DNA of 62,752 nucleotides, taken from IMG/VR virus record IMGVR_UViG_3300032435_000007. The stretch is one strand, 5' to 3'. Shown piece by piece: positions 1,878 to 12,427 of the stretch. How positions within the stretch are numbered: the first letter of the stretch is position 1; the number at the start of each line of letters is the position of its first letter. Made by a program: the position numbers and the translations under genes. The notes beneath the pieces were generated by a model, which saw only the letters and a program-made list of their open reading frames with translations, did no database searches and had not been told where the DNA came from. The stretch comes from a virus.

Positions 1878-2786
1878 TTAAGCGCCCGCAGAACCCCACA
1901 TGCCCAGTGGGTCGGACCAGCCGAAGCTGTACCGCTCGCGGGCCTTATAACGGACATTCCCCGTCTCGAAGTCTCCATCCATTCCTGTACTCATAGCAGA
2001 GCGGGTGAAGTGCTTCAGGCCGTTTGGAACGTCGGTAGTAAGGAACCACGCGTTCGTATCGGTGAGCCAGTGGTGGACGCCGTAGCCTTCAGGGATAGCC
2101 CCATTCGTGCGGAGGGCGTTCAGATCGTTGTCAGCCGTACCAACGCGAAGCTCGGTTTCGAGCAAGCGAGTAGCAACAAACTGCAACGCAGGTGGGATAA
2201 TCAACTTCTTGGGCTTCGCCGCAATCAGCAGACCGCGTTCATCCGTCCACGCCGAAATCTGAATGACCGCTGCTTCCAAGGAAGTCTCGTTCAAATCAGC
2301 CGGAGTTGTTGGGATGTTTGCGTTTACACCGCCAGACACCAGAGGGTGAGAAGCCGAGAACAATTCAACGCCATCACCACCTACGTAGTTACTGTCGAAC
2401 CCATTGTTCAAGGTAGCCGCAGCCTTCACCTGTTTGGTATAGGCCATGGCGCGAGCCAGACCCTTTGTGTACCGCGAGGACAGCGAATCGTAGAGGTTAT
2501 CTTCGACTGCTTCTTCCGTAATGGAGAAGCCTAGCGCGATTGTCTCGTGGGTATACCGAGAAGTGAATGCTTCCTGTGCGGTATCGTATTCGATACCAGA
2601 ACCTTCGTTCTTTACAGGTGCCGCCCCGAAGCCCGAAAGCTTCGTTTCTTCTTCAAAGGAACGTTCCGAGGTTTCATTCTCGTAGATTTCCTTATGCTCT
2701 TCGCCGTAGCGTTTGTATTCCAAACCAAACAAAGCGTTCAGGCCCGGAAGCAGTTCCTTGAGCAGTTGTGCGCGTGAAATTGCCAT
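1878..2786 (-). CDS. major capsid protein (HK97-fold type, 302 aa)
   Basis: Sits after portal, scaffold and small head genes. The sequence pattern around LKELLPGLNALF..GFSITEEAVEDNLY is typical of HK97-like coat proteins. A strong terminator follows. Confidence 0.75.
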   Translation of the reverse strand: MAISRAQLLKELLPGLNALFGLEYKRYGEEHKEIYENETSERSFEEETKLSGFGAAPVKNEGSGIEYDTAQEAFTSRYTHETIALGFSITEEAVEDNLYDSLSSRYTKGLARAMAYTKQVKAAATLNNGFDSNYVGGDGVELFSASHPLVSGGVNANIPTTPADLNETSLEAAVIQISAWTDERGLLIAAKPKKLIIPPALQFVATRLLETELRVGTADNDLNALRTNGAIPEGYGVHHWLTDTNAWFLTTDVPNGLKHFTRSAMSTGMDGDFETGNVRYKARERYSFGWSDPLGMWGSAGA

Positions 2787-2798
2787 GGTGTGTCTCCC

Positions 2799-3392
2799 TT
2801 AGACGCCAGTTGGGTTGTTATATTGGTGCATACCAGCGTTCCATTTAACGATGACTTCGGTATAAGAACCCGAAGCATTCACCGTTTCAGCAACTACATC
2901 CACGATACGAACCGGCCACGTTGAAGTGGTGTTCGTGGTCGCGCTAGCGGCTACTGCGGAATTGCCAGTGGTGGCGGAACCTGCGTTCTGAACCAGAACA
3001 GCATTGTTGCCAACAACCGTGCGCACTACACCACCAATAACGGTGGTACCGGACACGACTGCTACTTTGAACAATACGTTTGGATCATCTGCTACGTAGG
3101 CTTCAATATCCGAAGCAGTTACGGCTCCGGGATACGACTGCCGGAAGGTTTTGCCATAGGTCGCATCAGTATACGAACAACCAAGGAAAACACCGACAGG
3201 TGTTGCAGTGTTGGTGCCAGTGTCTTTCGCCAACGTCCCAGTACTATCCAACTTGACAACATCACCATAAAAAATGGCGGTTGCCGAGGCGGAAGTAATT
3301 GGAATATGCCGCGTTGCACCGGCAAATACCTGTGAACCAATCAAGTTGACTGGGCGAAGGCCATACGGCGCTTCAATTGCAGGGTAAGCCAT
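2799..3392 (-). CDS. head-module protein, candidate capsid decoration/cement protein (197 aa)
   Basis: Immediately upstream of the capsid gene. Beta-rich, with a Ser/Thr/Ala-rich tract (SATTGNSAVAASATTNTTST). The function is only a positional inference. Confidence 0.45.
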   Translation of the reverse strand: MAYPAIEAPYGLRPVNLIGSQVFAGATRHIPITSASATAIFYGDVVKLDSTGTLAKDTGTNTATPVGVFLGCSYTDATYGKTFRQSYPGAVTASDIEAYVADDPNVLFKVAVVSGTTVIGGVVRTVVGNNAVLVQNAGSATTGNSAVAASATTNTTSTWPVRIVDVVAETVNASGSYTEVIVKWNAGMHQYNNPTGV

Positions 3393-5423: not shown

Positions 5424-7981
5424 TACTCTTCTCCTCCTCCTTCGTTAACCGGTGTTTCTTCGCTTTGCGCAGCCTGTTGTAGTAACTGTGTAGCCCTATC
5501 AATATTCTGCGTTTCTGCTGCCGCTTTACGGTCTGCTTCCCGCTCCGCCTCCGCGGCTGAAGTTTTAGCCACTTCTATACCCATACGTAGCCCCGACTCC
5601 TGCTCCTTCGCGGATAGCTGGGCCTTGGAGGTGGCGATTTTGGCACCTACTTCCAGTCCCTTCATGCGCTCTGTGGAAGCTAGACGTTCTGTGTCGATAT
5701 CGAGGCGGTCCTTTGCTTCCGCGCCGTCGAGAACAAGCTTCTTCTCCTTGATATCCAGTTCCCGAGACTTCAATTCCAGTTCCTTCTGCTGCATCTGCAC
5801 AATAGGGTCCTGTTGGGCCTGTTGGGCCTTCTGCTGCGCAGCTTCCTGCTGGTTCTTTTGTGACAGCCCCTGTGCGGCTGCGGCAGCGAGACGGGATATT
5901 TCCACCTCGGTCTGTTCGTCCATCTTTGCGTCTGGGGCAGGGTATGGCACGCCAGCCTGCTCTTCGATCTGCTTGCGGTACTCAAACGCCAAATGCTCCG
6001 AAATATGGGCGTTCATAGCAGCCATCATTGTCTGTGCCGCGGGGTTCTGCCCCATCAACTGCTGTATCTTGGGGTCCTGCATAGCCGACATATGGACCGT
6101 TATATGTGCCTCGTGGTCCTGATAGATGAACGCCTTTACAGGTTTGCCGTTGATAACACTCATATTCTCGCTCACGGGGTCATGCGGCTGCTCGTTGTCT
6201 TCCGGCATAGGGACCAGTTTATTGGCCTCCTTGATACCCAACACCTCAAGCATCTGACGGTGGAGCAGCGGGAGATTGTACAACTGCGGCGCGCCTTGCG
6301 CTAATTGCAACACAGCCTGATACTGCACGACCTTCTGGGCCATGGTGGCTGCATTAGGGTCGCTGACCGGGATAACGTCCACAGTGTCGTAATCAGCCTG
6401 TTTAGCGGAGGCTTCCCCCTCCTCTGGCTCATAGTGGTAGTCATCGTCCGTGTTGTCACGGATAATGCCTTTAAGGATGCGGAATTCCTGCCGCATAGAA
6501 TAGTGGATGCGGGCCTGAATGGCTGACATTATCTTGAGTGTGCGTTCAAGAATCGCCAGTGTCGTGCCTACGGGTGCTTGCGCACTCATATCAGACACCT
6601 TCATATCCGCTGCGGACGCGAAGCGCCTACCTTCCTCTACGATAGTATTGAGAAGCGAATAGAGTACTTGGCTAGGCTCTTTATAAGGCAGCGGCATGAT
6701 ATTATCGCGCATTGTGCCAGAGCCTACATCTACATCCCGGAATTCCCCCGGCCCAATAGGAGTGTCATCCCCTTTGACACGGAGGCTCTTAGTTTTGAAG
6801 CCCCCCGGTAGATTTGAAAGGGTCCCTGCGTCAACAAGCTGACGAATAAGACTAGTACCAGACTTAGCAAAAGCACCGATAAGATGAATAAGGCCAAAAG
6901 CATAAAAGCCAAAGCCCGGAACATACGAATAATGGACAAAATGATTACGCTTAGTTTTTCTGGCATCATCTTCTACCCAGTTCCTACGGATAGCCAGTAT
7001 ACTACCAGAACTCTTGTCCAGTGTAACTATATAAGGCCGTGCTATTTCATCATCGTCATCAACGAACTCGTCGTCTTCGATTATCAGGTTGATGTGCATT
7101 TCGAGCAGTTTGTAGCGGTCATCTGACTCCGCACGGAAGCCCATCTTATTGGCTATCTCTTTTTCAACGTCGTCGAGGGTGTTAACAGGCTCCCCTAGTT
7201 CTGTTGGTAGGTAAAAACCCGAGTTTTGCAGTTTTTTCAGGTCGTTTGGGGTTTTCCGCATGATGTGGGTCACGCGCTCCGCGGTTTCGAGGTTTGAAGC
7301 GCCATATGGCACCACAACATCCTCCGCGGCGACGTACATAGAGGTCTGCCGGTTCAAACTAGGGTCAAAATAACACTTTTTGAACGCATTACCGGCTAGA
7401 CCAAGCCCCCATAACATTCTTTCATGCTCCGGGCGGTACTCAACCATACGTTCTGTAAGCTGGTAGTTCATATCGGACTGCACACGGGCCGCGGCATCGC
7501 GTTTTTCTTGTGTCTCCTTGCCAATAATCTGTGTTTTCACTGGCCCTGACGCCGGAAACGTCTCCATCATAGTCTCGGCCTGAAACTTAACGAGTGCTTC
7601 ACTCAGCAGGGGATGGTGTACGCCGCACGCGCCTTCCCATGGCTCCGTCCGGTCTTCAATCTTCATCCCCAGCAGGTCCAACCCATCCACATAGGTCTGT
7701 ATCCAGTCCTTGCGGGAGCTTTCGTCGTCCTCGTAATCAGATAGCAGTTCAGAGGAGAGGGAATTAAGCACGTTGTCGTCCAGATACTCCGCCATATTCT
7801 CGTTAAAGTCTATGGACTCCTCTGTATCTTCGCCTTCGCCGAGCAGTATTTCCATACCCTCATCATCATCGTCGTTGGCTATGACTACTTCAATATCAGG
7901 CATCTCCTTATGGTGTTCCTCCATCGGATCAAGGGCATCTAGTCCGAGCGGTGCTTGGTTCACTGATTTTTCAACGGCCAT
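5423..7981 (-). CDS. portal protein (852 aa) with a long charged coiled-coil C-terminal extension
   Basis: Immediately downstream of and overlapping terL. Size and position fit a portal. The C-terminal region is Q/E/K/A-rich. Confidence 0.8.
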   Translation of the reverse strand: MAVEKSVNQAPLGLDALDPMEEHHKEMPDIEVVIANDDDDEGMEILLGEGEDTEESIDFNENMAEYLDDNVLNSLSSELLSDYEDDESSRKDWIQTYVDGLDLLGMKIEDRTEPWEGACGVHHPLLSEALVKFQAETMMETFPASGPVKTQIIGKETQEKRDAAARVQSDMNYQLTERMVEYRPEHERMLWGLGLAGNAFKKCYFDPSLNRQTSMYVAAEDVVVPYGASNLETAERVTHIMRKTPNDLKKLQNSGFYLPTELGEPVNTLDDVEKEIANKMGFRAESDDRYKLLEMHINLIIEDDEFVDDDDEIARPYIVTLDKSSGSILAIRRNWVEDDARKTKRNHFVHYSYVPGFGFYAFGLIHLIGAFAKSGTSLIRQLVDAGTLSNLPGGFKTKSLRVKGDDTPIGPGEFRDVDVGSGTMRDNIMPLPYKEPSQVLYSLLNTIVEEGRRFASAADMKVSDMSAQAPVGTTLAILERTLKIMSAIQARIHYSMRQEFRILKGIIRDNTDDDYHYEPEEGEASAKQADYDTVDVIPVSDPNAATMAQKVVQYQAVLQLAQGAPQLYNLPLLHRQMLEVLGIKEANKLVPMPEDNEQPHDPVSENMSVINGKPVKAFIYQDHEAHITVHMSAMQDPKIQQLMGQNPAAQTMMAAMNAHISEHLAFEYRKQIEEQAGVPYPAPDAKMDEQTEVEISRLAAAAAQGLSQKNQQEAAQQKAQQAQQDPIVQMQQKELELKSRELDIKEKKLVLDGAEAKDRLDIDTERLASTERMKGLEVGAKIATSKAQLSAKEQESGLRMGIEVAKTSAAEAEREADRKAAAETQNIDRATQLLQQAAQSEETPVNEGGGEE

Positions 7982-10482
7982 TAGTAATACCCTTTTCGTG
8001 AGCTTCTGCCCTTAAAGTACATCTGTTCTTCATCTTCGTCTAGTAGCGTAGTGACATAGCCACCCTGCCGGAACCGCATCATCGCCAAACTGAGGCTATC
8101 AACATAGTCATCATGGGAACCTGCGGGGAATTCTGCCACTTCGTCTATAACTTCTTCCGCCCAGTGTGTGTTGGGTGCCCACACCCGCCCGGAGGCAAAT
8201 ATATCGGCCACGGCGTTCAGGCGGGAAATCTTATCATTACCTCTGGTCGGGGTATACTCCTGCACCGGTAACCCCATAGCCCGAAGCTCGTATATGAGTG
8301 GCGCGCCCGAGGCTTTCTTCTCAATAATTACTCCATCAGGTTCCCAGTCATTATAATGTTGTATGGCAACCTGCTTCAGCCGCGGAAACTCCATCCGCTC
8401 CCGGAACGCATTCAGGAGGATAATGTTGGGCTGCTTGGTCCCTGTCTCGTCCTCCTTGTAGAACACACCCCACATTGTTAGCGCCGAATAGTCGGCACGC
8501 TGGGTCTTCTCGAACGCTGTGTCCCACGACTGGAGGGTGAACTCACAATGTGGCGGGTCATCATGGGGCCACTCCTGCCACCACTCCCGCTTGATAATAG
8601 CAGACTGGTCAGAAGTCGGGTTCTGCTGGTACTGCGCCATCCACTTGCTGTTGGGCAGTTCTGTCTTCAGTGCAGTCAATTCCTCCATAGGCCAAAATTC
8701 CGGCCACAGGGGCTTGCCTGACGGCATGATCGCAGGAAACTCTATAACCTCCCACTCATTACCTCCACGCTGGCTGGAGGACTTCAGCACCTGCCCTGTA
8801 AGGTCACGCTTACTCCAGCGGGTCATAACCACGACTATGGCCCCTCCCGGCTGGAGCCGCTGCCGCGGACCAGAGGTATACCACTCGTAGGTCTTGTCGT
8901 AGATATCCGGGTTTATTTCCGCTAGCGCCGCCTCTTGCTCGGAGTGCGGATCATCGATAATAAGTACATCTGCGCCCTTACCCGTAACGGCCCCGCCCAC
9001 ACCAATAGCGAAGTAGTCGCCGCCCTTGTTTGTCTGCCAGCGGCCAGCAGCCTTACTATCCGCCTGCAAGGCCACGCCGGGGAACAATTCATGGAATATA
9101 TCTGTATCGAACAGGTTACGCACTTTACGCCCGAAGCCAACGGCTAGCTCCGCGGTATGGGAAGTTTGAATAACCTTCTTCTGGGGGTATTTACCGAGGA
9201 ACCATGCGGGAAGAAGGTAGGAGGCGAACTCGGATTTTGTGTTATGGGTTACAACCCACCCACGGCCCGCCATAAACAAACCATCGGTGTTCTCCACCTC
9301 CAAGCACTGGACTATCCCCCGCCTAGTGGTCTTGCACACATCTATACTACGCCCCCAGTTACCCCGCATACTACGGCAGCGTTCCGCCTTGCGTGGAAGG
9401 CGCGCAGCGTTCTCCATCTTAAACATCAGCCGGAATGACGGTTGGCTCGGCTTCCCTTTGTAGCTAGTCTGGCGGCGCGTTTTGCGCGCCTTAACCCCTA
9501 GTCCATGCAGAAGGCATAGTGTGTCATCTATAAGCCGCTCGTTACTGTTATTGAAGGTTACCTTCCCTTCCTTGGTAACGTCACCGTCGGTGTCGATAAG
9601 CCCTTGGAGGAGCGCGGTGCGCTGTTCTACAGAAGCGCACAGGTACTCTTCTGGTATGTGTTTGTTGTGTAGGATACCCCGCTCACGTAGAACTTTATGG
9701 GTCCCCAACACATTAAACTGCTGGTATTTCGGGTTGTGTGTAGTTTGGTATCCCTCTGCCTCAACCTGCGCTCGCATAGCAGGCTGGTCGCCGCGCCCAC
9801 AGCCAATGGAAGCCCCGTACGTACTTCCATCCCCCAGCCATACACCTAGCATATAAGGTGTTAGGGGTAAGTCGTGCCTATGTGGGTACTTAGCGGCTTC
9901 CTGCGAGGGCAGTATTGGGAGGTTACCTGACTCGCGCCAACTCTCTGTCTCCAACTTATGAAGGATTTCTTGGGTAGAAAGCGTCTGATATGGCCTATCG
10001 TTCGACCCAAACCGCACCGTCCATAGGTGGGTAGCATCACAGGTTATTACCTGTCCATCACCCGTTTTGACTTCGTATAGGTCTTCCTCGTACTGGGCCG
10101 ACTTACCCATAACCCGCACAGGCGTGCCATCTGGGGCGAACACATAATCCCCTGTCTCTACAGTCTCGACAGTTTTCCATCCCGTAGTAGTGGGGATTTC
10201 TTCTTTTATATCAAGCCGATGGCGCGGTGGCATGTTGATTATTAAGCGCTTTAACGTCCCCGCAGCCACACGTTCAAACGCCTCGGCCATAATGGCATGG
10301 TGCCGCCCTGATATAAAAGTAGGCCATACTTCCCGCACGAACGGCATGAAGTGGTCCTGCGCAGCCTTGCGCTTCTTCAGGTTGTCCAGTTTTTCAAGTT
10401 CGGCAAGAAGAAGTTCCTGCTCCGCAGGGGACAGGAGCGGCAGTATCTTCGGGATATCTTCTATTTTGATTTCTTCAAACAT
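7981..10482 (-). CDS. terL: terminase large subunit, interrupted by an intein (precursor 833 aa)
   Basis: N-extein ends in the P-loop context LIINMPPRH. The C-extein resumes TKSEFASYLLPAWFLGKYP and continues through ATPase/nuclease-like sequence (VLIIDDPHSE, DDYVDS). Confidence 0.9.
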   Translation of the reverse strand: MFEEIKIEDIPKILPLLSPAEQELLLAELEKLDNLKKRKAAQDHFMPFVREVWPTFISGRHHAIMAEAFERVAAGTLKRLIINMPPRHRLDIKEEIPTTTGWKTVETVETGDYVFAPDGTPVRVMGKSAQYEEDLYEVKTGDGQVITCDATHLWTVRFGSNDRPYQTLSTQEILHKLETESWRESGNLPILPSQEAAKYPHRHDLPLTPYMLGVWLGDGSTYGASIGCGRGDQPAMRAQVEAEGYQTTHNPKYQQFNVLGTHKVLRERGILHNKHIPEEYLCASVEQRTALLQGLIDTDGDVTKEGKVTFNNSNERLIDDTLCLLHGLGVKARKTRRQTSYKGKPSQPSFRLMFKMENAARLPRKAERCRSMRGNWGRSIDVCKTTRRGIVQCLEVENTDGLFMAGRGWVVTHNTKSEFASYLLPAWFLGKYPQKKVIQTSHTAELAVGFGRKVRNLFDTDIFHELFPGVALQADSKAAGRWQTNKGGDYFAIGVGGAVTGKGADVLIIDDPHSEQEAALAEINPDIYDKTYEWYTSGPRQRLQPGGAIVVVMTRWSKRDLTGQVLKSSSQRGGNEWEVIEFPAIMPSGKPLWPEFWPMEELTALKTELPNSKWMAQYQQNPTSDQSAIIKREWWQEWPHDDPPHCEFTLQSWDTAFEKTQRADYSALTMWGVFYKEDETGTKQPNIILLNAFRERMEFPRLKQVAIQHYNDWEPDGVIIEKKASGAPLIYELRAMGLPVQEYTPTRGNDKISRLNAVADIFASGRVWAPNTHWAEEVIDEVAEFPAGSHDDYVDSLSLAMMRFRQGGYVTTLLDEDEEQMYFKGRSSRKGYY
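9241..10218 (-). mobile_element. intein (about 326 aa, residues 89-414) with a LAGLIDADG homing endonuclease; class 3 (WCT) signature
   Basis: Hint block A RLDIKEEIPTTTGWKTVETVETGDYV. Block B DATHLW. LAGLIDADG motifs LGVWLGDGS and LQGLIDTDGD. Block F VQCLEVENTDGLF. Block G VVTHN followed by Thr+1. Confidence 0.8.
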
Positions 10483-11146
10483 CAGCAGGGGGTGCTTCTT
10501 CTGCTTCTATCTCTTCAAAATCCCCTTCGGGGATGTTATTCTTCTCTCTTCTTTCCCTTACCCCTGCGAATAGGTCATCTACTGTGTCCGCTAGGGGTGG
10601 GCCTTCCAACAGTTGTGCATTCAACAGGCGTTTTACTCTGTCTTTAATTGCTTTTTCCAGCGCTTCTGGGGAGTTATAGTTGATATTTATTTCTGATCTT
10701 TCTGTAAACATCCCGATATCACTATGTTTACCGAGTAATTCGATAGCCTTTAGTTCTATCTTGGCGTCCCCATGGTCTGCTAGCTCCAGAAGCTTGTTTG
10801 TCAACGCGGAGCGTATGCGCGCGTGATCCATAGCCAGACCGGAAGAATAGTTCCGCATGAATTCCTGCGCGCTGCGCGCACCTATATTAGACTGTAAGGC
10901 CTTGGCGTTACCACTGGCCGCTTGTTTCAGCAGCTTTTTAAGCGCGGTTTCGTCTTTTTCGTCGTCTAGTTCAGGGAGGTTTATACTGTCGTCCGCACCA
11001 AGTTCATCAAGCAGGTCAGCGGTACTTGCAGTGATCTTCAGATCATCCAACTTTGTCTTCGGTTCTTCATCCGATAGGTCATAGGGGATCGGGTGTTCTT
11101 CGCTTGGTTCGAGAAGTATTGTTTTTGTAGGTTGCGCTTCGCTCAT
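10475..11146 (-). CDS. terS: putative terminase small subunit (223 aa from ATG 11146; the ORF extends to 11197)
   Basis: First gene of the late strand and overlaps the terL start. AGGGGA sits 9 nt upstream of ATG 11146. Acidic N-terminus with a helical core. The function is positional. Confidence 0.5.
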   Translation of the reverse strand: MSEAQPTKTILLEPSEEHPIPYDLSDEEPKTKLDDLKITASTADLLDELGADDSINLPELDDEKDETALKKLLKQAASGNAKALQSNIGARSAQEFMRNYSSGLAMDHARIRSALTNKLLELADHGDAKIELKAIELLGKHSDIGMFTERSEININYNSPEALEKAIKDRVKRLLNAQLLEGPPLADTVDDLFAGVRERREKNNIPEGDFEEIEAEEAPPADV

Positions 11147-11168
11147 GGGTCTTGTCCCCTTTGTAGTG

Positions 11169-11197
11169 CCTATATATTTTTTCTTTCTCCTGCGCAA
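11169..11197 (-). promoter_or_regulatory. candidate sigma70-like promoter for the late (minus-strand) operon
   Basis: Minus strand reads TTGCGC, then 15-17 nt, then TATATAGG, about 25 nt upstream of the terS ATG. Weak match. Confidence 0.3.
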
Positions 11198-11312
11198 GTA
11201 GGGTTACCCTTCTCCAAAATTTTGCGAAAAATTTTTATGGGTTTTCGTTTGAAAACATGGCGGGGGGGTCTGGAGAATAGGCCCCTACCCCTCGTAACTC
11301 CTCGTTTTCTCT

Positions 11313-11421
11313 AAATATGGAGAACAAACCTCCAAATATGGAGAACAAACCTCCAAATATGGAGAACAAACCTCCAAATATGGAGAACAAACCTCCAAAT
11401 ATGGAGAACAAACCTCCAAAT
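11313..11421. repeat. perfect tandem array: 21-bp unit AAATATGGAGAACAAACCTCC, 5.2 copies (iteron-like)
   Basis: Read directly. Copies start at 11313, 11334, 11355, 11376 and 11397. Each unit contains a GGAG..CTCC inverted pair. Confidence 0.95.
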
Positions 11422-11614: not shown

Positions 11615-12235
11615 ATGGCCAACACAACAGAGACAACTAAGCCAGCCCGCAAGCCAGCCGCTAAGTCAGCCAGCCAGATATTGGCAGCTAGTCGCGTCAA
11701 GGCCAAAGCAAAAGAGGATGCGCGCCAAGCTAAAGCCATTGCCACTATCGCCAATGGTGCCCGCAAGGCGGCAGAAACTAAGCCATTGCCAGCCTTGCGT
11801 ATGGCATTTGTCACGGCGGTTATGTCAGGGGATGGAAAAACATTAGCCTATGCGAATAGCCTTACCATCCAGTTTGGGAAGGGATGGGAGAAGATTAAGC
11901 TGGCTGGACCTTGCACCCCAAATGAAAAGAAAGTTAGGGAGGCAATCAAAGTAGAGCAAAGTGTTCTATATGCTATGCTAAAGGGTAAGGGGCATTCAAA
12001 CCCTAGCGTTGTCTGGGGACGGATGAAGCTGGCTGCTGCTGCCCCTGCTAAGAAAGGTGCAAGAGCCAATGCGCCTAGAGCGATTGATGCAAGGCAGAAA
12101 GATGAATTAAGTAAGCTTTACAAGGCTTTCTTCACCGCCGATGATTGCAATAGCGACGCTTGCAAGGCTAACCTTGCGATTGCCGCTATCTTACTTGACG
12201 TGTTCAAGGTGGATATTGGCTCGCTCAAGTCTTAA
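11615..12235 (+). CDS. hypothetical basic Ala/Lys-rich early protein (206 aa)
   Basis: First plus-strand ORF downstream of P1. Followed by an intrinsic terminator. Confidence 0.7.
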   Translation: MANTTETTKPARKPAAKSASQILAASRVKAKAKEDARQAKAIATIANGARKAAETKPLPALRMAFVTAVMSGDGKTLAYANSLTIQFGKGWEKIKLAGPCTPNEKKVREAIKVEQSVLYAMLKGKGHSNPSVVWGRMKLAAAAPAKKGARANAPRAIDARQKDELSKLYKAFFTADDCNSDACKANLAIAAILLDVFKVDIGSLKS

Positions 12236-12283: not shown

Positions 12284-12328
12284 CGTTTATGAGAGTGACT
12301 CTATAGTGAGGGGACCAAGCCCGCACGC
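12284..12328. repeat. copy 1 of a 45-bp direct repeat (CGTTTATGAGAGTGACTCTATAGTGAGGGGACCAAGCsCGCACGC)
   Basis: Identical except one base to 12383..12427 (99-bp period). The reverse complement contains CTCACTATAG. Confidence 0.9.
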
Positions 12329-12366
12329 GCCGCGCCCGCGTCCACCACCCTGCTAGCTGCGCAGGG

Positions 12367-12382: not shown

Positions 12383-12427
12383 CGTTTATGAGAGTGACTC
12401 TATAGTGAGGGGACCAAGCGCGCACGC
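12383..12427. repeat. copy 2 of the 45-bp direct repeat
   Basis: See 12284..12328. Confidence 0.9.

Follow-up and report, generated by a model that had tools for sequence, protein, structure and literature searches.

The viral sequence IMGVR_UViG_3300032435_000007 from IMG/VR was analysed as one stretch of 62,752 nucleotides, referred to here as the window. Coordinates are those of the window, the features in Table 1 lie on its minus strand, and residue numbers are those of an 833-amino-acid (aa) precursor protein. The open reading frame (ORF) at 7981..10482 encodes this precursor, a phage large terminase subunit (TerL) whose ATP-binding loop (the Walker A motif, or P-loop) is split by an insertion. 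The insertion is very probably a class 3 intein that carries a LAGLIDADG homing endonuclease and is predicted to splice. An earlier reading of the sequence (hereafter the original prediction) had proposed that the TerL P-loop holds a Hint plus LAGLIDADG intein that bears the Trp-Cys-Thr (WCT) signature of class 3 and lacks an N-terminal nucleophile, and this core was supported by all available sequence-level tests.

The ORF is a phage large terminase of the Terminase_6 / T7-like lineage, with an N-terminal ATPase containing Walker A and Walker B motifs and a C-terminal RNaseH-like nuclease. The nuclease domain was matched within residues 652-803 by Terminase_6C of Pfam (E = 2.9e-10) and TIGR01630 of NCBIfam (E = 1.6e-13), and Walker B (IIDDPH, residues 508-513) is uninterrupted (IIDDPHSEQE). 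When the window TerL was compared by tblastn with 50,697 phage records, no close relative was found; the best matches were 50-56% identical terminases of the aquatic phages DSL-LC04 and 023Pt_psg01, Pelagibacter phages HTVC027P and HTVC023P, and Synechococcus phage MinM2. The match to each of these five phages breaks into two pieces and skips query residues ~89-414. Outside the insertion, identity to DSL-LC04, 023Pt_psg01 and HTVC027P is 52-56%, and the predicted spliced TerL has 507 aa, compared with 489-533 aa for intein-free homologs.

Alignment with intein-free TerLs gave a single clean insertion of 326 residues between ...KRLIINMPPRH and TKSEFASYLLPA... (TKSEFASYLL...). The insertion of about 326 aa originally placed in the terL ORF was thereby confirmed as exactly residues 89-414, or window 9241..10218, and the residue numbers assigned earlier were all correct (PPRH 85-88, R89, DATHLW 149-154, VQC 391-393, VVTHN 410-414 and T415). 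Four intein-free TerLs of cultured phages read PPRH-TKSE (DSL-LC04, 023Pt_psg01, HTVC027P and HTVC023P) and that of MinM2 reads PPRH-SKSE; PPRHTKS was also present in 48/48 metagenomic intein-free TerLs that keep the motif and were recovered with their flanks. Because these 53 homologs read PPRH/[T or S]KSE (a slash marks a junction), the scissile bonds are His88-Arg89 and Asn414-Thr415, and the canonical C-terminal junction described earlier (VVTHN/T) is borne out. Any other pair of junctions would add residues to, or delete them from, the invariant PPRH[T or S]KSE, and therefore no Cys, Ser or Thr is possible at intein position 1. The homolog alignment thus agrees with the earlier assignment of this position to Arg89, without an N-terminal nucleophile. 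Its codon, CGG, is two substitutions from any Cys codon.

Table 1. Features of the intein-containing TerL gene in the window
Feature	Residues	Coordinates	Strand	Basis
TerL precursor ORF, 833 aa, stop codon included	1-833	7981..10482	-	ORF list; Terminase_6C and TIGR01630; homolog identity
N-extein, ending ...RLIINMPPRH, the first half of Walker A	1-88	10219..10482	-	alignment with intein-free homologs
Intein, 326 aa	89-414	9241..10218	-	absent from intein-free homologs; homologous inteins; AlphaFold2; Foldseek
Arg89 (codon CGG), intein residue 1, non-nucleophile	89	10216..10218	-	register matches A1/L1/Q1/P1 of related inteins
N-terminal splicing (Hint) lobe, blocks A and B	89-167	9982..10218	-	phmmer to 6rix and 6bs8, query residues 5-72; model beta strands 27-101
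Block B His152-Leu153-Trp154 (B:10 His; B:12 Trp of WCT)	152-154	10021..10029	-	aligned to H-Q-W of 6rix and 6bs8
LAGLIDADG homing-endonuclease region, boundaries approximate	168-375	9358..9981	-	Pfam; helix-rich model; Foldseek PI-SceI, PI-PfuI, I-DmoI
LAGLIDADG motif 1, LGVWLGDGS, Asp218	212-220	9823..9849	-	L-G-D-G invariant columns in alignment A2
LAGLIDADG motif 2, LLQGLIDTDGD, Asp299	291-301	9580..9612	-	G, L, D nearly invariant in alignment A2
C-terminal splicing lobe, blocks F and G	376-414	9241..9357	-	phmmer query 301-326 to C-terminus of 6rix and 6bs8; HMM match 9241-9363
Cys393, block F position 4, predicted branch-point nucleophile	393	9304..9306	-	VQCLEV aligned to VRCVEV of class 3 DnaB inteins
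Thr412-His413-Asn414 (G:5 Thr of WCT, penultimate His, terminal Asn)	412-414	9241..9249	-	sequence read
Thr415, +1 nucleophile, at the Walker A 'Gly' position (PPRH-T-KS)	415	9238..9240	-	alignment with intein-free homologs
C-extein: remaining Walker A (TKS), Walker B (IIDDPH 508-513), RNaseH-like nuclease domain	415-833	7981..9240	-	domain matches and alignment

Class 3 inteins are defined by a non-nucleophilic residue 1 that co-varies with Trp at position 12 of block B (B:12), Cys at F:4 and Thr at G:5, with Ser or Thr at +1 (PMC2807308, PMC3196547). The window intein has all of these: Arg89, Trp at B:12, Cys at F:4, Thr at G:5 followed by His-Asn, and Thr415 at +1. The earlier placement of W154, C393 and T412 in the expected blocks held on alignment with the class 3 DnaB inteins 6rix and 6bs8. 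The best PDB-chain matches by phmmer were class 3 DnaB inteins (6rix, 6bs8 and 6riy; E = 1e-13 to 6e-13), and the alignment covers both block A/B (...DAxHxW) and block F/G (V-x-C-[LV]-E-V ... THN). The block B His and Trp columns are invariant in alignment A2, and HxW occurs in 232/256 relatives.

The fold was examined with an AlphaFold2 model of residues 69-434, built from 19 homologs. The model is confident (predicted local distance difference test, 88; predicted template-modelling score, 0.85), and in Foldseek comparisons its splicing domain has the Hint fold. The whole model matched PI-SceI (E = 8.5e-20), TliVMA and PI-PfuI, and the class 3 DnaB mini-inteins were covered at a target template-modelling score of 0.77-0.83. 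Taken with the phmmer matches and the 17,704 family matches described below, assignment as an intein is far beyond chance. In the central region Pfam models matched at residues 286-361 (LAGLIDADG_3, E = 5e-9) and 276-361 (Hom_end, E = 3e-5). Both LAGLIDADG motifs keep their acidic residue and both are conserved in alignment A2.

To place the intein among its relatives, 1.84 billion representative proteins were scanned by HMMER with the intein alone, which matched 17,704 representative clusters at an E-value of 1e-3 or below, 2,147 of them at 1e-30 or below. A survey set of 256 intein N-termini and 217 complete inteins was drawn from the best 150 representatives, further homolog matches and four phage TerLs; the block F Cys was scored by a windowed search, as the F-G spacing varies by 1-2 residues. 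This Cys was present in 217/217 complete relatives, as was Asn at G:7, with Thr at G:5 in 212/217 and His at G:6 in 202/217. The +1 residue was Ser in 130, Thr in 77 and Cys in 9. The full signature (non-nucleophilic residue 1 plus W, C and T) was found in 200/217 complete relatives (92%). A survey from 2025 lists 287 class 3 inteins in actinobacteriophages, nearly all in TerL and Cas4 (10.1101/2025.01.02.630785). These numbers do not fit the earlier description of class 3 as a small group.

Residue 1 was far more variable than the blocks. Among the 256 N-termini it was Ala in 136, Pro in 34, Cys in 27, Leu in 16, Arg in 9, Met in 7, Asp in 6, Ser in 6, Gly in 5, Gln in 4, Glu in 3, and Lys, His and Asn in 1 each. 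Residue 1 thus shows essentially no constraint, and an Arg there is uncommon without being an outlier. Arg1 occurs at the same site in P0001 (80% identical), L008, P0002, P0003, P0005, P0014 and P0078, and siblings at this insertion site carry Ala, Lys or Asp instead; Arg1 also arises independently in two other exteins (P0142 and P0172). The expectation that an Arg at position 1 would be unusual even for class 3 was therefore not upheld, as Arg1 is found in 9/256 relatives and is a clade character common to at least seven other sequences. A neighbour-joining tree (unbootstrapped, of relatives only) nests the window intein among class 3 relatives, and class 3 inteins have been reported to be monophyletic. 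In it the window, P0001, L008, P0002, P0003 and P0078, all Arg1, fall together with P0084 (Lys1) as sister, and this Arg1/Lys1 group is separate from a second, Ala1 intein set at the same site.

The idea that Arg1 acts as a stand-in for the Walker Lys, which stands at -1 at the classic site, was also considered and rejected. Among class 3 inteins elsewhere, 66/91 lack a basic residue at both -1 and 1, so a basic neighbour of the scissile bond is no general requirement. The PRH/ site itself also harbours five inteins with Ala1, leaving replacement of the Walker Lys by Arg1 unsupported.

By homology with studied class 3 inteins, the following pathway is proposed. His152 would activate Cys393 (F:4), Trp154 and Thr412 would help to position it, and its attack on the His88-Arg89 bond would transfer the N-extein to Cys393 in a thioester branch. 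Thr415 (+1) would take the N-extein by transesterification, Asn414 would cyclise and release the intein, and an O-to-N acyl shift would leave a His88-Thr415 peptide bond in a 507-aa TerL with the PPRHTKS typical of the clade. Arg89 would be a bystander, position 1 having no use in class 3 chemistry. The published features on which this scheme is modelled are an obligate block F Cys (PMC2807308), two sequential branched intermediates (PMC5222942) and the Cys-His-Thr triad in the MchDnaB1 structure (PMC7664689). For the Dra Snf2 and Msm DnaB-1 inteins the block F branch has been trapped and found to be thiol-sensitive. As the ATPase site would be split until splicing, packaging would depend on splicing.

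In co-infections the LAGLIDADG domain would presumably cleave TerL alleles that lack the intein, at ...CCNCCNCGNCAY/ACNAARTC..., and so spread the intein by homing. The intein-less target for such cleavage would be CGCTTAATAATCAACATGCCACCGCGCCAT/ACAAAATCCGAGTTCGCCTCCTACCTTCTT, and its classic-site counterpart ...CAYGGNAAR/TCN.... TerL is the main intein host in mycobacteriophages, with two P-loop sites one residue apart (Kelley et al., PMC5050341), and TerL inteins have been found to splice and their endonucleases to cut intein-less alleles (PMC5050341).

Several points weigh against the class 3 interpretation. Splicing, its intermediates and the endonuclease activity are ascribed to the window intein by homology with studied class 3 inteins. 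A check against intein hidden Markov models (HMMs), suggested in the original prediction, was negative: no curated splicing-domain model of Pfam or NCBIfam matched at E ≤ 0.1 and only endonuclease models fired, so the block assignment rests on the PDB and homolog alignments. A class 3 intein of this kind, with no matching splicing-domain HMM, is easily missed or labelled just 'homing endonuclease'. Block B position 7, usually Thr or Ser, is Asp149; this position is dispensable in the class 3 prototype (PMC2807308). Lastly, the proportion of nonsynonymous differences (pN) ranged from 0.12 to 0.25 across comparisons with synonymous sites saturated in most partitions, which makes the ratios of nonsynonymous to synonymous rates (dN/dS) given here rough.

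Low pN combined with saturated synonymous sites places both domains under purifying selection. Between the window and L007 (the gene of P0001, whose intein is 80% identical in aa sequence), pN in the intein was 0.123 and the synonymous proportion (pS) 0.692, with dN/dS of ~0.05 in the N-terminal Hint part and ~0.10 in the endonuclease part; the C-extein was excluded from this comparison because a second intein in L007 contaminates it. Between the window and L008, pN was 0.21 and pS was saturated. The low dN/dS (~0.1) over residues 191-375 is consistent with the predicted endonuclease activity and is no proof of it. Identity to L008 was 71% in the intein and 69-78% in the exteins, and GC content was 0.50-0.57 in the intein and 0.48-0.59 in the exteins, with no compositional discontinuity. 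Similar divergence and even composition suggest long residence, with no sign of a recent jump. When the window was scanned in all six frames with an HMM, no further intein of the same family appeared. The window intein is genuine, well preserved and probably active.

Among alternative or additional explanations, a post-translational switch fared best; it would give the intein a role besides that of a selfish element, and would add to the class 3 reading without excluding it. Here oxidation of Cys393, or its binding of metal, would delay formation of the P-loop and so gate packaging. With the ATP-binding loop split by the intein, the precursor cannot be an ATPase. The M. smegmatis class 3 DnaB intein is described as an oxidative-stress sensor (PMC6195587), H2O2 inhibits N-cleavage of MchDnaB1 (PMC7664689), and such regulation was discussed for TerL inteins by Kelley et al. 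(PMC5050341). Most members of the TerL clade, however, were found without an intein (48 intein-free versus ~14 occupied), so the intein is dispensable, and the conserved endonuclease suffices to explain its persistence through homing. We consider a regulatory role unlikely.

Far less room is left for a decayed, non-splicing remnant like the Arthrobacter Arth_1007 pseudo-intein, with TerL function gone or provided in trans. A single inactive intein resembling class 3 is on record (PMC3196547), and the non-nucleophilic residue 1 and the lack of a match to standard splicing HMMs could be taken for decay. That inactive case, however, has WDT in place of WCT and sits within a 66-aa extein remnant, whereas the window intein keeps WCT, His413, Asn414 and Thr at +1 in an uninterrupted ORF for a full-length essential TerL. 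The same architecture occurs under purifying selection in relatives down to ~50% identity, and no second TerL was found in the window by a six-frame HMM scan. Decay is accordingly very improbable.

An equally poor prospect is a class 2-like route, in which Thr415 would attack the His88-Arg89 bond directly and Cys393 would be merely structural. The attacking atom cannot be read from a sequence, and class 2 inteins likewise begin without a nucleophile at residue 1 (PMC7664689). When the target is an unactivated amide, chemistry favours attack by a thiol over attack by a hydroxyl, which counts against such a route. The only class 2 inteins known are those of KlbA (PMC3196547), which have no WCT triplet (PMC2807308), and the F:4 Cys was absolutely required in every WCT intein tested (PMC2807308, PMC5222942). 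KlbA inteins begin with Ala1 (PMC2807308, PMC3196547), resembling the window intein in the missing nucleophile, and none was among the relatives found. We therefore give this route hardly any weight.

A class 1 intein whose true N-junction holds a Cys, Ser or Thr, with Arg the product of a misplaced junction or a sequence error, has next to no chance of being correct: although class 1 is the commonest intein class and the proposed junction is followed ten residues later by Thr98-100, the 53 intein-free homologs fix H88/R89 and so rule out a misplaced junction, CGG would need two substitutions to become a Cys codon, Arg1 is present in seven other independently assembled sequences and the same-site siblings have Ala, Lys and Asp, and F:4 is Cys where class 1 typically has Asp.

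The class 3 intein of the window differs from most relatives in its insertion register. The classic site, GK/S, holds 119/256 surveyed inteins (for example PPQTGK/QLSD...THN/SE, SQVGK/LVAH..., PQTGK/ALAL... and PPGHAK/PLHV...), and the window intein lies two residues upstream of it (PPRH/.../TKS). This register is common to 14 surveyed sequences, the window included, and additionally to L008, a metagenomic phage contig of 64,957 bp whose TerL is intact at 855 aa and reads PPRH/RIDIKEE...ITHN/TKSEF. The Walker A of this TerL clade is PPRH-[T or S]-KS, with Thr or Ser replacing the Gly of nearly all P-loop NTPases in the five cultured phages and in the 48/48 metagenomic intein-free homologs, and it is this residue that makes the upstream register possible. 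The deviant motif is seen in the window at 9232-9240 joined with 10219-10230 once spliced, and also in L001, L002, L009, L010 and L011. According to the original prediction the insertion replaces the P-loop Gly with the +1 Thr; this part did not stand, for intein-free members of the clade already read PPRHTKS or PPRHSKS. The Thr is native to the clade, so the intein did not introduce it.

How the clade came by this residue is a matter of order. Intein-bearing members show T, S or C at the Gly position, and in every sampled clade member, occupied or empty, the residue is only T, S or C and never G or A. An unlikely account is that the residue is a legacy of intein occupancy in this aquatic-phage TerL clade. 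The intein would have required a +1 nucleophile, co-conversion during homing or selection during residence would have fixed Thr, Ser or Cys, and the residue would then have persisted after intein loss in most lineages. The restriction to T, S or C and the presence of two intein lineages (R1/K1 and A1) at the site are consistent with a legacy. The reverse order, in which the deviant P-loop came first and the intein colonised it later, fits equally well. If the legacy account were true, the catalytic motif of the host enzyme would have been remodelled by a mobile element, which would thereby have gained a homing register of its own at a distance of two residues from the classic site.

The intein was compared with known systems. 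Class 3 DnaB inteins (mycobacteriophage Bethlehem; M. smegmatis DnaB-1, 6BS8; M. chimaera DnaB-1, 6RIX and 6RIY) share its residue-1, H-x-W, block F Cys and Thr-His-Asn features, as well as Ser or Thr at +1 and insertion into an ATPase P-loop. They differ in residue 1, which is Arg in the window, Pro in the Bethlehem DnaB intein that is the class 3 prototype (PMC2807308) and Ala in most surveyed relatives. The window intein sits in TerL instead of DnaB, is preceded at -1 by His in place of the Walker Lys, and, unlike the crystallised DnaB mini-inteins, bears a full LAGLIDADG domain. The classic GK/S or GK/T TerL inteins (TerL1-a; Kelley et al. 2016) have the same enzyme, motif, WCT and LAGLIDADG at 28-40% identity; those compared came from Gordonia phages Verity and YungMoney, Bacteroides phage BF486P1 and Caulobacter phage CcrColossus. 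Their +1 residue is the Walker Ser or Thr, whereas that of the window, at PPRH/TKS, takes the Walker A Gly position. Class 1 inteins of the PI-SceI/VMA type have the same Hint plus LAGLIDADG architecture and gave the best whole-model Foldseek matches (E 1e-20 to 1e-15), but they start with Cys1, follow the standard four-step class 1 pathway and are only 13-18% identical.

The window intein is an ordinary new case of the well-described class 3 TerL P-loop inteins, with thousands of relatives, many of them inserted in this motif of the enzyme. Phage terminase large subunits and P-loop insertion were already among the class 3 hosts of Tori et al. (PMC2807308), and the GenBank record of CcrColossus already annotates a homologous TerL intein. 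A literature search pairing 'intein' with 'HTVC023P' found nothing. Only the shifted register using a deviant Walker A and the Arg/Lys-1 subclade are mildly new, and the current understanding of class 3 splicing is unchanged. The case adds an aquatic-phage lineage, related to terminases of the pelagiphage HTVC023P/027P type and the cyanophage MinM2 type, to class 3 TerL inteins so far documented mainly in actinobacteriophages. It shows that a second P-loop register is open to class 3 inteins when a nucleophile replaces the Walker A glycine, and it offers a natural Arg/Lys/Ala/Asp series at one insertion site by which the small importance of residue 1 could be gauged.

In annotations, this gene is best entered as a TerL precursor that contains an intein, the mature peptide being 1-88 plus 415-833. 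Automatic gene callers truncate such terminases, as in L008 (3230-5797), where the TerL called in the database (P0004, 598 aa) begins with a Met that belongs to the intein and the true ORF is 855 aa and intact. A second intein was seen in the same TerL of close relatives (L007:1342-3168 (P0001), P0017, P0002, P0003, P0009 and P0010). It is of two types, one Ala1 and class 3-like, directly after Walker B (IIDDPH/ALEV...), and the other a Cys1 intein at GKGADL/C....

Directly upstream of TerL, overlapping its start by 8 nt, a 240-aa acidic protein is encoded at 10475-11197 (-), in the position expected of a small terminase subunit. A PHROGs search of three ORFs neighbouring TerL, this one included, gave no match; in L008 a similar protein (2665-3297) precedes TerL. 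Just upstream of this gene, between the divergent 10475-11197 (-) and 11615-12235 (+), an intergenic 21-bp tandem repeat (CTCCAAATATGGAGAACAAAC) spans 11309-11421 in 5.4 copies with 98% match. Further along, a 45-nt direct repeat occurs at 12284-12328 and 12383-12427, the copies being 98% identical and 99 nt apart. Its core on the minus strand, CCCCTCACTATAGAGTCAC, is present twice in the window against 0.02 occurrences expected by chance, and we take it to resemble promoters of single-subunit RNA polymerases of the T7/T3 type. Each 45-nt copy is followed by a 27-nt repeat (TAGCTGCGCAG...TAACA.TGTTAGC), at 12354 and 12464.

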